From positions 117,742 to 181,741 of the forward strand of contig SFCQ01000004.1 in the NCBI GenBank assembly GCA_004558525.1: a DNA stretch of 64,000 nt, written 5' to 3'. This document shows positions 16,440-63,964 of the stretch, in pieces. How positions within the stretch are numbered: position 1 is the stretch's first letter; each line of letters starts with the position of its first letter. Under the pieces are notes generated by a model that saw only the letters and a list, made by a program, of their open reading frames with translations, was not told the DNA's origin and did not search any database. The DNA comes from Clostridiales bacterium. Lineage in GTDB: Bacteria; Bacillota; Clostridia; Christensenellales; CAG-138. Made by a program: the position numbers and the translations under genes.

Positions 16440-16552
16440 AAAGTACGAAAACCTTTGGGCTTTCATCCGTTCTGACGTGCATGCCGTCAGAGCCGGAATA
16501 AAGCTTAATGGGCAGCCGCCCCTTAACAACCCCAGGGTTTTTCGACAGGCTG
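16440..16552 (+). repeat. Family-1 structured repeat, 5'-truncated copy (right-hand ~113 bp)
   Basis: Near-identical to 62458-62567: AAAGTACGAAAACC..GGGYTTTCATCCGTTCTGACGTGCATGCCGTCAGAGCCGGAATAAAGCTTAA.GGGCAGCCGCCCCTTAACAACCCC.GGGTTT.TCGACA. Confidence 0.85.
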
Positions 16553-26388: not shown

Positions 26389-26457
26389 CTGAGTATCGAA
26401 AAAGTGGCGGACAGCCACTTTTTCGACTACCTGAAAGGCGGACAGCTCCGCCTTTTT
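26389..26457. terminator. Two back-to-back hairpins between convergent bioY and jag; the first is the family-1 AAAAAGTGGC/GCCACTTTTT module
   Basis: ATCGAAAAAGTGGC-GGACA-GCCACTTTTTCGAC (26389-26427), then AAAGGCGGA-CAGC-TCCGCCTTTTTT (26434-26457). Confidence 0.75.
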
Positions 26458-34262: not shown

Positions 34263-34329
34263 AAAAAGTGGCTGAGCCGCTTTCAGTCTGTCAAAAAAGT
34301 GGCTGGTCGCCACTTTTTTGAGCTTTTCA
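34263..34329 (+). repeat. Family-1 repeat, left-end fragment preceded by a related hairpin, between convergent patatin and mnmE
   Basis: AAAGTGGC-TGA-GCCGCTTT, then CAGTCTGTCAAAAAAGTGGCTGGTCGCCACTTTTTTGAGCTTTTCA. This is the terminal inverted repeat plus first hairpin of the 62369 element. Confidence 0.8.
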
Positions 34330-39966: not shown

Positions 39967-39970
39967 CAGA

Positions 39971-39986
39971 TGTTTCACGTGAAACA
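39971..39986. promoter_or_regulatory. parS: parS centromere-like site (perfect palindrome TGTTTCACGTGAAACA)
   Basis: Matches the Firmicutes parS consensus TGTTNCACGTGAAACA at 16/16 positions. Confidence 0.85.
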
Positions 39987-39998
39987 ATGGGGGAGAGT

Positions 39999-43047: not shown

Positions 43048-43148
43048 AAATAATAATAAACCTCAACAATCCCCAATAAATTACAATTCCAAGTCTCGCT
43101 TATAGACTCTATACCATTATAAGATATATTTGGCCATAACACAATCAA

Positions 43149-43164
43149 TGTTTCACGTGAAACA
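43149..43164. promoter_or_regulatory. parS: Second parS site (identical TGTTTCACGTGAAACA)
   Basis: 16/16 identical to the 39971 site; lies ~100 bp upstream of the GNAT-parA-parB operon start. Confidence 0.85.
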
Positions 43165-43190
43165 AATAAGGCGGGGCTAACGCCCTGCCT

Positions 43191-43325
43191 CAGAGTGTCG
43201 ATAAACTCCGGGGTTGTTAAGGGGCAGGCGCCCCTTAAGCTTTATTCCGGCTCTGACGGCATGCACGTCAGAACGGATGAAAACCTTTAGGTTTTCGTAC
43301 CTTGCGGGTTTTGCCGCCCGGGAGC
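43191..43325 (-). repeat. Family-1 structured repeat, truncated copy in inverted orientation
   Basis: Reverse complement aligns with 62430-62567 of the full copy. Homology stops at CCCGGGAGC, just before the thiT stop codon. Confidence 0.85.
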
Positions 43326-48665: not shown

Positions 48666-48741
48666 GGGAGCATAGCTCAGCTGGGAGAGCACTTGCCTTA
48701 CAAGCAAGGGGTCACAGGTTCGAGCCCTGTTGTTCCCACCA
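48666..48741 (+). tRNA. tRNA-Val (anticodon TAC)
   Basis: I folded the cloverleaf by hand: acceptor GGGAGCA/TGTTCCC, anticodon stem CTTGC/GCAAG, loop CTTACAA, T-loop GGTTCGAGCC, encoded CCA. Confidence 0.93.
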
Positions 48742-48774
48742 TAGCACATTATGGTGCATGGCGCAGCCGTGTAT

Positions 48775-48851
48775 GGCCCGGTGGTGCAGTTGGTTAGCAC
48801 GTCAGCCTGTCACGCTGAAGGTCAGGGGTTCGAGCCCCCTTCGGGTCGCCA
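48775..48851 (+). tRNA. tRNA-Asp (anticodon GTC)
   Basis: Anticodon stem TCAGC/GCTGA, loop CTGTCAC, T-arm AGGGGTTCGAGCCCCCT, encoded CCA. Confidence 0.92.
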
Positions 48852-48856
48852 AGCCT

Positions 48857-48932
48857 GCCTCGGTAGCTCAGCTGGTAGAGCAAGGGACTGAAAATCCCTG
48901 TGTCGGTGGTTCGACTCCACTCTGAGGCACCA
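48857..48932 (+). tRNA. tRNA-Phe (anticodon GAA)
   Basis: GCCTCGGTAGCTCAGCTGGTAGAGCA..., anticodon stem AGGGA/TCCCT, loop CTGAAAA, encoded CCA. Confidence 0.93.
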
Positions 48933-48939
48933 AGCTTAT

Positions 48940-49015
48940 GCGGGAATAGCTCATTTGGTAGAGCGCTGCCTTGCCAAGGCAGAGGTGGCGGGTTCGAGCC
49001 CCGTTTCCCGCTCCA
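48940..49015 (+). tRNA. tRNA-Gly (anticodon GCC)
   Basis: Acceptor GCGGGAA/TTCCCGC, anticodon stem CTGCC/GGCAG, loop TTGCCAA, encoded CCA. Confidence 0.93.
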
Positions 49016-49018
49016 TAT

Positions 49019-49093
<75 letters not shown>

Positions 49094-49127: not shown

Positions 49128-49187
49128 TATTCTAAAACCCTGCGGCGGAAATTCAGGGTACAAAAAAAGCCAGATTTCTCCGGCTCT

Positions 49188-49354
49188 CAGAGTGTCAAAA
49201 AAGTGGCTGGTCGCCACTTTTTTGAGTTTTCACAGGTTTTGCCTCTCGCATTAGCTCCCGGGCGGCAAAACCTGCAAAGTACGATGTCGTCAGAGCCGGA
49301 TTGAACATAAGGGGCTGCGGCCCCTTATCAACCCAGGGGTTTTTTGACAGACTG
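49188..49354 (+). mobile_element. Family-1 structured repeat, complete-ended copy with an internal ~35-bp deletion
   Basis: Termini are CAGAGTGTCAAAAAA ... TTTTTTGACAGACTG (13/15 inverted repeat), and the internal hairpins are shared with 62369-62572. It is flanked by AAAGCCAGATTTCTCCGGCTCT (49166-49187) and AAAGCCCGATTTCTCGGGCTCT (49355-49376). Confidence 0.8.
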
Positions 49355-49391
49355 AAAGCCCGATTTCTCGGGCTCTGATAATGATTCTTCC

Positions 49392-50902: not shown

Positions 50903-50918
50903 TTATAGTATAGTTTGC

Positions 50919-50967
50919 AGAATGTCAAAAAAAGTGGCTATTCGCCACTTTTTCGAGCTTTCACAGG
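50919..50967 (+). repeat. Family-1 repeat, left-end fragment (terminal repeat plus first hairpin) acting as a terminator between convergent genes
   Basis: AGAATGTCAAAAAAAGTGGC-TATTC-GCCACTTTTTCGAGCTTTCACAGG. Confidence 0.8.
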
Positions 50968-60198: not shown

Positions 60199-60224
60199 GG
60201 GAGTATTTATTGCACACTGATTTG

Positions 60225-60253
60225 AAGAAGCGGCAGCTTGCCGCTTCTTTTTT
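60225..60253 (+). terminator. Rho-independent terminator after the OB-repeat lipoprotein gene
   Basis: GAAGCGGCA-GCT-TGCCGCTTC followed by TTTTTT. Confidence 0.8.
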
Positions 60254-60955: not shown

Positions 60956-62263
60956 ATGAAAAATCCCGTTGCCGAAAAACTGCTTGATTTTATGAAGAAC
61001 AGCCCGACGCGCTATCAGGTCGTGGCAAACTTTGAACAAAGGCTGAACGATGCCGGATATACGAAGCTGTATCCGGAAAAGGTATGGCAGCTTGAGAACG
61101 GCGGCAAGTATTATCTTTCGCCAAACGGAACGGCCATAATGGCTTTCAGGATACCCGATAAGGTCAGCGGCGGCTTTATGATGGCCGCGGCGCACAGCGA
61201 TTCGCCAACGTTTAAGGTAAAGGACAATGCGGAAAAGGCGTCCGCGCATTATGTGCAGCTAAGCACGGAAAGATACGGCGGCGCGCTTATGGCCACATGG
61301 TTCGACAGGCCGCTTTCCGTTGCCGGCAGGGTGCTTGTAAGGGGCGAAAACGGAAGGATAGCCGTTAAGCTTGTAAATATAGACAGGGACCTTGTTATTA
61401 TCCCCAGCGTTGCCATACACATGAACAGGAACGCCAACGCCGGCTTTGAAATAAAGGCAAATATAGATACCCTGCCGCTGTTTTCCGATGAAAGCGGCAA
61501 GGATGCGTTCATGCAGCTTGTGGCCCAAAGCGCAGGCGTTGCAAAGGAGGATATACTCTGCCATGACCTGTATCTGTATAACAGGCAGCAGCCCGCCTTC
61601 CTCGGCAGGAATGATGAATACATAGCCTCGCCCAAGCTTGACGATGTCGAGTGCGCGTTCGGCTGCATGGAAGGCTTTATCGCGGCTGAAGAAAGCGGCA
61701 GCATACCCGTATGCTGCGTGTTTGATAACGAGGAGGTAGGCAGCGAGACCAAGCAGGGCGCGGCCGCAAACGTGCTAAGGGATACGCTGAGGCGCATAGC
61801 GCTTGCCTTAGGCAAAAGCGAGCAGGAGTATCTGGCCATGATAGCGCAGAGCTTCATGGTATCTGCGGACAATGCGCACGCCCAGCACCCCAATCACCCC
61901 GAGTATTCGGATATGGACAACTGCCCGTATATGAACCGGGGTATAGTAATCAAGTTCAACGCCAGCCAGAAATACACTACCGACGGCGTATCGGCCGCCA
62001 TATTCAGGCAGGTATGCAAGGAGGCAGGGGTACCCGTGCAGGTGTTTGCCAACAGGTCTGACCTTGCGGGCGGCGGAACGCTTGGCAGCATAGCCACCAC
62101 AAAGGTGCCGGTAAGCACGGTGGATATAGGGCTTGCCCAGCTTGCCATGCATTCCTGCTACGAGACCGCCGGCGCGGAGGATATAGAAAGCCTTGTCAAG
62201 GCCATGAGAGTGTTCTTCTCAAAGACGATGACGGTTGAAAACGGCGAATACGGCGTAGAGTAA
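60956..62263 (+). CDS. M18-family (aspartyl) aminopeptidase
   Basis: 435 aa. ...AAAHSDSPTFKVK..., ...DNEEVGSETKQGA... and ...DIGLAQLAMHS..E. are typical M18/M42 metal-ligand regions. Confidence 0.85.
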   Translation: MKNPVAEKLLDFMKNSPTRYQVVANFEQRLNDAGYTKLYPEKVWQLENGGKYYLSPNGTAIMAFRIPDKVSGGFMMAAAHSDSPTFKVKDNAEKASAHYVQLSTERYGGALMATWFDRPLSVAGRVLVRGENGRIAVKLVNIDRDLVIIPSVAIHMNRNANAGFEIKANIDTLPLFSDESGKDAFMQLVAQSAGVAKEDILCHDLYLYNRQQPAFLGRNDEYIASPKLDDVECAFGCMEGFIAAEESGSIPVCCVFDNEEVGSETKQGAAANVLRDTLRRIALALGKSEQEYLAMIAQSFMVSADNAHAQHPNHPEYSDMDNCPYMNRGIVIKFNASQKYTTDGVSAAIFRQVCKEAGVPVQVFANRSDLAGGGTLGSIATTKVPVSTVDIGLAQLAMHSCYETAGAEDIESLVKAMRVFFSKTMTVENGEYGVE

Positions 62264-62368
62264 TAAAGGCGCGCAAAAAAAAGAGGCGTCAGCATACCTG
62301 TGCAGGGCAGGTCGGCCGCGCCGTATAAAAAACGATAAAAGCAGGGGGGCGGATCATTCCGCCCCTTC

Positions 62369-62572
62369 AGAGCGTCGAAAAAGTGGCTGGTCGCCACTTT
62401 TTCGAGTTTTCACGGGTTTTGCCTCTCGCATTAGCTCCCGGGCGGCAAAACCCGCAAAGTACGAAAACCTCTGGGTTTTCATCCGTTCTGACGTGCATGC
62501 CGTCAGAGCCGGAATAAAGCTTAAGGGGCAGCCGCCCCTTAACAACCCCGGGGTTTATCGACACTCTTGAGT
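62369..62572 (+). mobile_element. Family-1 structured repeat, longest (reference) copy
   Basis: Six consecutive hairpins with imperfect terminal inverted repeats. It is bracketed by an exact 21-bp direct repeat at 62348-62368 and 62573-62593. Confidence 0.8.
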
Positions 62573-62578
62573 GGCGGA

Positions 62579-63964
62579 TCATTCCGCCCCTTCGTTTGCG
62601 TCCTCGATTTCAGCTTCAACGGATACGGCAACGGCTTCGTGCCTGTCCTTTTCCGGATGGCAAAGCGCGCTGCGGCGGAAGCATATGGCCATAAGCAGGC
62701 TGCATACCACCCAGCCCATGGGGTATGCAAGCGCCACCGTCACGAACCCGCCGCCGAGCCTTGTGCCGGCAAAAAGATATATCTGCCTGAACAGCACAAA
62801 GGAGGAAAGCATAACTATCATCGGCACGTTCGCCTTGCCTATGCCGCGCATGGCGCCGGCGAAGGTCTGGTTAAAGCATACGGTAAAGTAGAACGGCGCT
62901 ATTATGCCTATAAAGCGGGAGCCATACTGAATTACTATTGGATCGTCCGTAAAAAGCGTGAGCAGCGTCTCCCTGAGCAGCAAAAGCGGGATACATAGTA
63001 TCACGGTGGTCACAATCGATATTATAAGCGAGCAGCGCACGCCGTTTCTTGCCCTGTCAAGCTGCCTCGCGCCGTAATTCTGGCCGACGAAGGTGGTAGA
63101 GGCCATAGCTATGCTCTGCGCCGGTATAAGCACATAGGTATCCAGCTTGTTGTAGCTTGACCAGCCGGCCATGCAGTCCGAGCCAAAGCCGTTTACATAG
63201 GATTGCACGAACACGTTTGAAAAGGCGGTAAGCCCCTGCTGCACGCCGGAGGGCAGGCCTATCGCAAGCACCTTTTTCAGTATATAGCCCTTTATGCAAA
63301 GGTCTCCCCAGTGTATGGCATATGGGCCTGCGGAGCGGGTAAGCACGAACAGTACGAGCGCCGCCGAAATAAACTGGGAAAGTATAGTGGCGTATGCCGC
63401 GCCGGCAATATCCATTTTGAACGCTATAACGAATAAAAGGTCAAGCGCTATATTAAGAAACGCAGAGAAGAGAAGAAAGTACAGCGGCCGCTTTGAATCG
63501 CCCACGGCCCTAAGTATGGCCGAGCCCATGTTGTATATGAACAGGCCGGATATGCCGGCAAAGTATATGGTCAGATAATTATGCGCCGAGGCGAAAACAT
63601 CGTCCGGCGTGGCCATCAGCCTGAGCATGGGGTCAACTATAAATATGCCTGTTATCGTTGCCGCAACGCTCATTATAATGGTGAGCAATATGGTCGTATG
63701 CACGGCGTCATGCAACTTTTCATAATCCTTTGCGCCGTATGCCTGCGATATAACTACGCTTGCTCCCATTGAAAGCCCCGAGCACAGGCCGACCAGCATG
63801 TTTATTATGCTGCTCGTGCTTCCAACGGCGGCAAGCGCCTCTTTACCGACAAATTTGCCTACTACTATCGTATCTACCGTGTTGTATAGCTGCTGAAAAA
63901 GCAGCCCGGCCGCCAGCGGTATGGCGAACCGTATAAGCAGCGGCCATATGCTGCCTTGAGTCAT
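62579..63964 (-). CDS. MATE-family efflux transporter
   Basis: 461 aa, 12 TM. MTQGSIWPLLIRFAIPLAAGLLFQQLYNTVDTIVVGKFVGKEALAAVG is the canonical MatE N-terminus. Confidence 0.92.
   Translation of the reverse strand: MTQGSIWPLLIRFAIPLAAGLLFQQLYNTVDTIVVGKFVGKEALAAVGSTSSIINMLVGLCSGLSMGASVVISQAYGAKDYEKLHDAVHTTILLTIIMSVAATITGIFIVDPMLRLMATPDDVFASAHNYLTIYFAGISGLFIYNMGSAILRAVGDSKRPLYFLLFSAFLNIALDLLFVIAFKMDIAGAAYATILSQFISAALVLFVLTRSAGPYAIHWGDLCIKGYILKKVLAIGLPSGVQQGLTAFSNVFVQSYVNGFGSDCMAGWSSYNKLDTYVLIPAQSIAMASTTFVGQNYGARQLDRARNGVRCSLIISIVTTVILCIPLLLLRETLLTLFTDDPIVIQYGSRFIGIIAPFYFTVCFNQTFAGAMRGIGKANVPMIVMLSSFVLFRQIYLFAGTRLGGGFVTVALAYPMGWVVCSLLMAICFRRSALCHPEKDRHEAVAVSVEAEIEDANEGAE

Follow-up and report, generated by a model that had tools for sequence, protein, structure and literature searches.

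The repetitive element at the 3' end of the MATE gene

This work concerns a 64-kb window (the whole stretch of 64,000 nucleotides analysed, from contig SFCQ01000004.1 of a Clostridiales bacterium) and in particular a short hairpin-rich element at the 3' end of a transporter gene. The element lies between two convergent genes, an M18 aminopeptidase gene on the plus strand (60956-62263) and a MATE/MurJ-type transporter gene on the minus strand (62579-63964; called as an open reading frame (ORF), with Pfam PF01554/PF03023 on record for the identical protein). Here a non-coding, hairpin-rich core of 204 bp (62369-62572) sits between two copies of GGCGGATCATTCCGCCCCTTC, at 62348-62368 and 62573-62593, which form an exact direct repeat (21/21 identical) and do not occur a third time in the window. 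By chance, about 6e-6 such 21-bp repeats at a distance of up to 400 bp are expected in 64 kb. If two mismatches are allowed, the repeat at the MATE site extends to 25 bp (GGGG/GAGT plus the 21-mer). An earlier reading of the DNA letters alone (the original prediction) had reported this exact repeat, six hairpins in the core, imperfect inverted repeats at its ends and the MATE stop codon within the hairpin of the right copy, and all four features were found at the places given there.

The left copy (62348-62368) comprises most of the original MATE terminator stem-loop, GGGGCGGA-TCAT-TCCGCCCC (62346-62365). In minus-strand direction, the original T-rich tail comes after this copy, which scores terminator-like and is the only one in the empty alleles described below, in agreement with the earlier suggestion that it is the original terminator. 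The right copy (62573-62593) carries the last five MATE codons and the TGA stop, which is located in the loop of its hairpin. Because the duplication restores these codons and the stop, which are overlapped by the terminator, the MATE ORF is intact. The MATE transcript would enter the element in reverse orientation; on this strand, hairpin 1 of the element would again offer a stem followed by five T's, and farther on the transcript would run into the left copy and the original T-tail. The consequence of the insertion for the MATE gene is benign.

The element starts with the left terminal inverted repeat CAGAGCGTCGAAAAAG (62368-62383, plus strand), whose first C overlaps the last base of the duplication, and ends with the right one, TTTATCGACACTCTTG (62554-62572, plus strand; the repeat proper at 62554-62569 plus AGT). 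These two ends are imperfect inverted repeats of each other. Hairpin 1, TCGAAAAAGTGGC-tggtc-GCCACTTTTTCGA (62375-62405, arms 62375-62387/62393-62405), is complementary at 13/13 positions. It has an A5-stem-T5 shape resembling a bidirectional terminator, and it is the best-conserved part of the repeat family introduced below. Hairpin 2, CGGGTTTTGCCTCTCG ... CGGGCGGCAAAACCCG (62413-62454, arms 62413-62428/62439-62454), is 88% complementary. It is followed by hairpin 3, GAAAACC-tctg-GGTTTTC (62463-62480, arms 62463-62469/62474-62480), by hairpin 4, TCTGACG-TGCATGC-CGTCAGA (62487-62507, arms 62487-62493/62501-62507), with a covarying stem and a conserved apex, and by hairpin 5, TTAAGGGGC-agcc-GCCCCTTAA (62521-62542, arms 62521-62529/62534-62542). 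Hairpin 6, the palindrome AACCCCGGGGTT (62544-62555), is positioned directly before the T-rich start of the right terminus. The region folds more stably than shuffled sequences on both strands (z = -9.2 and -9.3; 0/200 shuffles as stable). The only ORFs inside the core, of 44-71 aa, run across hairpin arms on both strands and are probably spurious.

Filled and empty alleles in the same species

Contigs encoding identical MATE and identical M18 proteins were retrieved from 20 independent gut-metagenome assemblies of the same species (retrieved loci are given L numbers). Ten of the 20 alleles (L001, L004-L006, L009, L012, L015, L018-L020) have the 21-mer only once, and exactly 225 bp (204 + 21 bp) are missing from their intergenic region. 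The window-like filled structure is present in nine (L002, L003, L007, L008, L010, L011, L013, L014 and L016). L017 is filled on the left side, but inside the element its sequence passes over into another copy, whose right half and flank follow (L017 11308-11650); this is either a chimeric assembly or a recombinant. The single-21-mer alleles are true empty sites, and the insertion is polymorphic in the species. Since the empty alleles have one 21-mer only, a tandem 21-mer preceding the insertion is excluded. Empty sites had been named in the original prediction as a feature to look for, and they were found as anticipated. In the filled alleles L016 and L010, the right repeat reads CCCCCTC and the left one CCCCTTC (window position 62589). 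The empty allele L020 also has CCCCCTC, and therefore the T/C polymorphism at the MATE C-terminus is independent of the insertion, or the alleles have recombined.

A second insertion-polymorphic site of the family exists in the same species. The hairpin TGAAGAAGCGGCAGCTTGCCGCTTCTTT at 60223-60250 is unoccupied in the window, and in the conspecific L017 a family copy (L017 9042-9295) is inserted here with a 28-bp hairpin duplication.

The second complete copy of the family in the window is located on the plus strand at 49188-49354 (49166-49376 including repeats). It is flanked by 22-bp hairpin repeats (49166-49187 and 49355-49376) with two mismatches in the window, and allele L298 has a perfect 22/22 repeat at this site. 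In alleles L289-L298 the left repeat copy occurs in five sequence variants, and the right copy, beside a DUF5640 gene, is invariant. The stem-pair differences between repeat copies at this site and in L078 were considered as a signature of the mechanism; this was rejected, since the left copy decays from the perfect 22/22 repeat. In allele L293, the 22-bp hairpin repeats of this site enclose a different variant of the element, which is oppositely oriented. The other variant and its orientation indicate a second, independent insertion into the same hairpin; alternatively, an inversion between the palindromic repeats took place. The copy in the window lacks about 33 bp internally (hairpins 3-4), and this segment is kept in the nine other alleles that retain the region. 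Together, the site at 60223-60250 in L017 and the 49188 site show that the family has been active in this species.

Whole stem-loops are duplicated throughout the family

To describe the family, we searched with the hairpin-1 pattern in one genome per species; copy numbers refer to the matches listed and do not represent a census. Among the matches listed, family ends were present in Flavonifractor, Lawsonibacter, Pseudoflavonifractor, Dysosmobacter, Faecalibacterium, Christensenellales and other Clostridia, and the closest relatives of the subfamily in the window were in the metagenome-assembled genomes (MAGs) SFNQ01 and SFDB01. The family, which is widespread in gut Clostridia, has the consensus termini CAGnnTGTCrAAAAAG and CTTTTTyGACAnnCTG. 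In the general architecture, CAGnnTGTCGAAAAAG and a GC hairpin with its T-run (A5-stem-T5) form the left end, and a hairpin followed by TTTTTCGACAnnCTG (TTTTTyGACAnnCTG) forms the right end. The left end CAGAGCGTCGAAAAAG of the window element matches this CAGnnTGTCGAAAAAG end of other family copies and also that of IS1182-family insertion sequences (ISs).

At least about 20 independent complete copies were detected in various genera, each flanked by a direct repeat of a whole locus-specific stem-loop. Thus, further copies with flanking duplications, another feature proposed for examination, do exist. The complete elements measure about 170-310 bp between the duplications, mostly 186-260 bp. 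The duplications range from 18 to 41 bp across copies: 18 bp in L045, 21 bp at window position 62348, 22 bp at window position 49166, 27 bp in L093 and L120, 28 bp in L017, L075 and L104, 29 bp in L074 (complete genome AP018533), 30 bp in L044, 31 bp in L043, L092, L100 and L113, 33 bp in L086, 34 bp in L053 (the isolate Lawsonibacter hominis NSJ-51) and 41 bp in L046. When tabulated automatically, the length of the repeat and the span of the hairpin enclosed in it are correlated (r = 0.89, n = 24). Repeat length follows the hairpin, and therefore the 21 bp reflect the size of the MATE terminator and are not a property of the element. Of the 21-bp duplication of a terminator hairpin originally proposed, the target was right, and the fixed length has to be replaced by the size of the respective stem-loop. 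In one subfamily (L044 3262-3300), hairpin 1 is altered on both arms, AAAAAGATGC...GCATCTTTTT versus GTGGC...GCCAC, and the 30-bp hairpin duplication is kept.

Autonomous IS1182-family relatives

Metagenomes were scanned for autonomous relatives with the left terminus not followed by T. The scan yielded many chance matches and many contigs ending about 54 bases inside the end, as multi-copy ISs do, and two full elements, L252 and L154. Their ORFs (486 and 476 aa) match the NCBIfam model NF033551 "IS1182 family transposase" with 392 bits (cutoff 270) and also Pfam DUF772, DDE_Tnp_1 and DDE_Tnp_1_6. Homologues of these transposases are abundant; the proteins encoded by elements of 1.53-1.6 kb with such ends measure 471-489 aa. 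Other ISs encode homologues with 67-89% identity and the same Pfam domains, which are precomputed for these homologues (the profile scans were applied to the L252 and L154 proteins only). Judged from the genomic places retrieved for three homologues, the autonomous ISs are 1531-1583 bp long.

The ends of these ISs are built like those of the short elements. Their left end consists of CAGnnTGTCGAAAAAG, the 16-base terminus, followed by a GC hairpin between A5 and T5 (the T-run), a -10-like box and the start of the transposase. At the right end, a terminator hairpin precedes TTTTTCGACAAGCTG, its T-run continuing straight into CGACAAGCTG. The arrangement at both ends of the short elements, with hairpins 1 and 6, is the same. 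The autonomous copies also behave in the same way upon insertion: in clean cases, perfect foot-to-foot palindrome duplications of 22-37 bp were found. These comprise 27 bp (AAACCAGCGGCACAAAACCGCTGGTTT) in L259-L265 (one locus, seen in seven of the ten samples shown), 37 bp in L271/L272, 22 bp in L273/L274, 28 bp in L284 and 30 bp in L281. The direct repeats of the IS1182 family in ISfinder span 0-60 bp.

An autonomous element with these termini had also been proposed as something to look for. This was borne out insofar as the same termini flank IS1182 transposase genes; none of these elements has the subfamily's own hairpin 1. The left end of an autonomous partner of the window subfamily would be expected to start with CAGAGTGTCGAAAAAGTGGC. 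Terminal-repeat pairs 0.6-4 kb apart were absent from the retrieved genome-collection loci, and no meaningful match to plasmids was obtained by BLAST with the left end. A scan of viral contigs with CTGTCGAAAAAGTGGC gave two matches, both located inside coding sequence and dismissed as chance. An IS1182 ORF behind a GTGGC-type left end in L114 was rejected as the partner, being a nested element with different termini (CAGCCCrCrCACAAACCC) inside a hairpin of a short element. L114 (Faecalibacterium MAG CAYMOM010000073.1) further holds, at 55-686, a 582-bp segment between 25-bp perfect hairpin repeats, AGGGTCGGGAGCAATTCCCGACCCT. Two small ORFs, one of them hydrophobic and 38 aa long, and a strong promoter-like box are located in this segment, which is without family termini; the IS1182-family ORF, with its CAGCCCrCrCACAAACCC termini and hairpin, adjoins it.

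Probable identity of the element and mode of insertion

The core is non-coding and short (204 bp, well within the limit of about 600 bp for miniature elements), has terminal inverted repeats, a target duplication and empty sites, and belongs to a multi-copy family; its 16-base termini and end architecture are shared by IS1182-family ISs. The termini are common to elements encoding a transposase of the NF033551 type with DUF772 and DDE_Tnp_1_6 domains, and hairpins are targeted regardless of their sequence by the short elements and the autonomous copies alike. Insertion takes place without sequence specificity and in both orientations, and one hairpin is used repeatedly. Based on the shared termini and on the same hairpin duplication by autonomous copies, we consider the core very likely to be a non-autonomous MITE, a transposable element of the miniature inverted-repeat type, with the termini of a hairpin-targeting IS1182-family clade of gut Clostridia, moved in trans by such a transposase and duplicating whole stem-loops. 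The transposition of a repeat-family member postulated in the original prediction is thereby supported by the empty sites, by the family copies with their hairpin duplications and by the autonomous elements with the same termini.

Several observations weigh against this assignment. IS1272, the IS1182 member studied in most detail, does not duplicate the hairpin but deletes it. The similarity between MITE and ISs comprises only about 16 terminal bases per end plus the shared subterminal architecture, and nothing corresponding to the MITE interior (hairpins 2-5) is present in the ISs examined. Among the loci retrieved, no autonomous element has the left end of the window subfamily (hairpin 1 = GTGGC...GCCAC), and none of the conspecific ones contains an IS1182-family transposase. 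Several autonomous copies have different hairpins on their two sides. These unequal flanks probably reflect chimeric short-read assemblies through a 1.5-kb repeat, because matching halves are present on other contigs (e.g. in L270 the left flank and in L278 the right one). Finally, the repeat at the MATE site is displaced by 2-3 bases from the perfect stem, starting 2 bases inside its 5' foot and ending 3 bases beyond its 3' foot, and the right repeat is separated from the consensus right terminus by three extra bases of uncertain origin, AGT (62570-62572). The exact junction is therefore uncertain by a few bases; imprecise repair or a later mutation would each explain the off-stem junctions.

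Flank switching inside repeats, in both MITE and IS copies, was seen in L017 (11308-11650), L294, L270 and L275-L279. It may represent chimeras or real recombinants, and therefore element flanks in short-read contigs are unreliable.

For the insertion of the proposed MITE we suggest the following scenario. A DDE transposase of the IS1182 family, supplied in trans, would recognise a stem-loop or cruciform by its shape and not by its sequence, the target being presented either as an extruded cruciform or as a transiently single-stranded hairpin. From the end products we infer that each of the element's two 3' ends would be joined to one DNA strand of the target, at or near opposite feet of the palindrome, and that the entire stem-loop would be copied during the ensuing gap repair, so that one copy is left on each side of the element. 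At the locus studied here, the target was the intrinsic MATE terminator. The last codons and the stop are part of this terminator, and the hairpin with its original T-tail remains downstream. Whole-stem-loop duplication is predicted by the IS1272-based model if joining occurs at the 5' feet (pathway b in Fig. 13 of PMC5678879).

Known systems and alternative explanations

The closest parallel regarding the transposase is IS1272/TnSha1 (IS1182 family) of staphylococci, which targets terminator hairpins without sequence specificity, in both orientations and recurrently (PMC4923244, PMC5678879). It shares the transposase family (NF033551) with the clostridial autonomous relatives, in addition to hairpin targets, both orientations and recurrence. 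However, IS1272/TnSha1 removes part or all of the stem-loop without target duplication, while the clostridial clade and the MITE duplicate the whole stem-loop, and the window element is non-coding. The term "stem-loop replacing" does not apply here, since the hairpin is duplicated and not deleted by MITEs and autonomous relatives. Palindromic targets of some IS1182 members were mentioned by Siguier et al. 2015, as quoted in PMC4923244 and PMC5678879.

The closest parallel regarding the outcome is found in the IS30 family. According to its title, the paper of Calcutt et al. 1999 on IS1630 of mycoplasmas describes terminators duplicated at variable length (quoted in PMC3317919 and PMC7648426); the duplicated inverted repeats in strain M64 are given as 16-26 bp (PMC3317919, citing Calcutt 1999). 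The insertion sites of ISMhom-1, a relative of IS1630, are the 3' ends of genes, whose ORFs stay intact by means of the duplicated repeat (PMC7648426). This insertion outcome, with an intact ORF at the gene 3' end, is identical to that of the window element, and the variable duplication of terminator repeats (18-41 bp) is found in our family as well. Mobilisation by an IS30-family transposase of the IS1630/ISMhom-1 type was therefore weighed, but only a slim chance can be given to it. The termini match elements with an IS1182 transposase and not IS30-family ones, no IS30-type transposase (HTH + rve) accompanies such termini, and a phmmer search with E. coli InsI against all ORFs of all retrieved loci gave no match. 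As far as could be judged, the termini are unrelated, and IS1630 and ISMhom-1 are autonomous ISs of 1.3-1.4 kb, not MITEs. The original statement that no described element shows this combination has to be withdrawn, since IS1630 duplicates terminators and the IS1182 family targets terminator hairpins (PMC4923244, PMC5678879). The insertion at the MATE site is a clear new example of a rare, already described mode of insertion, and the window element, itself non-autonomous, unites two precedents, the transposase family being that of IS1272 and the outcome of insertion that of IS1630.

The IS1202 family also comprises DDE elements with direct repeats longer than 20 bp (24-29 bp), but its transposase belongs to another family, and its repeat length is set by the subgroup and not by the target (bioRxiv 10.1101/2022.12.17.520857). 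In a term search of the text of that paper, no hairpin, palindrome or terminator was mentioned together with the repeats, and IS1202 was rejected as a source of the long duplications. The MITEs Correia, RUP, BOX/SPRITE and ERIC are, like the window element, small, non-coding, multi-copy and intergenic with terminal inverted repeats, and they also share its modular and mosaic construction, its truncated copies and its strong secondary structure at the RNA level (PMC10969869). They differ in having short fixed duplications (e.g. TA) or none, and duplication of a whole structure-defined target was not reported for them. In spacer integration, Cas1-Cas2 makes a staggered attack at both borders of an often palindromic repeat, and the whole repeat is duplicated. 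A target preference was also described for casposons (PMC5137440). Both are mechanistic analogies only, as here no Cas1 is involved and the target is not a fixed sequence. In the literature searched, no account of this MITE family was found, and searching papers for the literal terminal sequences revealed unrelated primers only.

Another possibility is that the core is primarily a structured non-coding RNA or a module of the 3'-untranslated region, and that the repeat arose by a different process, such as replication slippage at a palindrome. The very stable folding on both strands and the position of the element, always in transcribed 3' regions, are in line with such a role, as is hairpin 4, whose stem covaries and whose apex is conserved across subfamilies. 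In 12 subfamily representatives (alignment A1, columns 132-166) it forms a 12-bp stem in which 11/12 pairs are changed on both sides. In this stem, 94% of the cells are paired, compared to about 50% for the whole structure when the partners are slid; for the whole structure (all three helices), no shuffle reaches the observed covariation score. The apex CG-YRCAYGY-CG, centred on CATG, is conserved across subfamilies, and its motif was not found in the five IS loci searched (three distinct ISs). Covariation is not a proof of function, since template switching can preserve the symmetry of a palindrome even in the absence of selection. Even at a permissive E-value, an Rfam scan of the region gave no match at the gathering threshold, the best being sraL with 25.6 bits versus 39, and a known RNA family was rejected for the core. 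Slippage cannot bring one and the same sequence of 200 bp, together with its terminal inverted repeats, into hairpins that are unrelated and belong to many genomes, and the exact presence/absence alleles and shared transposon termini indicate transposition. As the primary explanation, an RNA element is thus very improbable; a structured-RNA role could exist alongside mobility.

The conservation of hairpin 4 exceeds that usual in MITE interiors. It is tempting to speculate, albeit with considerable doubt, that the interior of the MITE may be a conserved functional module, either a structured RNA or a protein-binding cruciform, carried on IS1182 ends and delivered to gene 3' ends. If true, the interior module and the foot-to-foot duplication would make a structure-guided DDE transposase directly testable.

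The two remaining alternatives have practically no chance of being correct. In favour of the 21-bp repeat being the attachment-site core of a site-specific recombinase, as in an integrase-type insertion into a gene 3' end, the duplication restores the MATE 3' end, as integrative elements do at tRNA genes; however, the repeat differs from site to site, in each case being the hairpin found locally, a recombinase gene does not accompany the element, and the terminal inverted repeats are of the transposon type. An assembly or local-duplication artefact confined to the window might be suspected, as metagenome contigs turn chimeric at these repeats (L017, L294 and several IS flanks), but the filled structure was assembled independently in ten other samples (in L017 up to the chimeric join) and the empty one in ten, and for other copies this pattern recurs in an isolate (L053) and in a complete genome (L074).

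Further family members in the window

In total, two full copies, two truncated copies and three end modules of the family are present in the 64-kb window, and more on conspecific contigs. Immediately upstream of the complete copy at 49188, a tRNA operon (Val-Asp-Phe-Gly-Cys, 48666-49093) is located; the target hairpin of this copy lies about 70 bp past the first terminator-like hairpin after the tRNA genes. A truncated copy at 43192-43325 (minus strand) consists of the right two-thirds, with its right terminus one base from a hairpin, and another at 16440-16547 (plus strand) consists of the right half. Solo left-end modules, composed of the terminus and hairpin 1, are located on the plus strand at 34284-34329 and 50918-50967. 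A minimal element in which the two termini are folded together (CTGAGTATCGAAAAAGTGGC...GCCACTTTTTCGACTACCTG) adjoins a terminator hairpin at 26389-26433. Other termini-only elements of this kind, e.g. CAGCCTGTCGAAAAAGACTTTTTCGACAGGCTG, were seen beside terminator hairpins in L102 (605-640), L105, L141, L161, L213 and L240; they represent the smallest form of the family.

In addition, the 18-bp palindrome ATGTTTCACGTGAAACAA occurs twice, at 39970-39987 and 43148-43165. The two copies are 3178 bp apart around four minus-strand ORFs, and the second one lies about 10 bp before the hairpin bordering the truncated MITE copy. The pair could be a repeated operator site or another hairpin duplication.

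Significance of the locus

The locus does not reveal a new kind of mechanism. It is, however, an unusually clean natural experiment in structure-directed transposition, with filled and empty alleles in one species, a hairpin struck twice in opposite orientations and duplication lengths set by the target. It shows that an IS1182 clade of gut Clostridia, and an abundant MITE family with its ends, duplicate terminators, which IS1272 deletes. For genome annotation, contigs are often chimeric at these repeats, and this should be kept in mind; at the same time, the family accounts for long "direct repeats" and for terminators that are doubled at the ends of genes in genomes of the Oscillospirales type.

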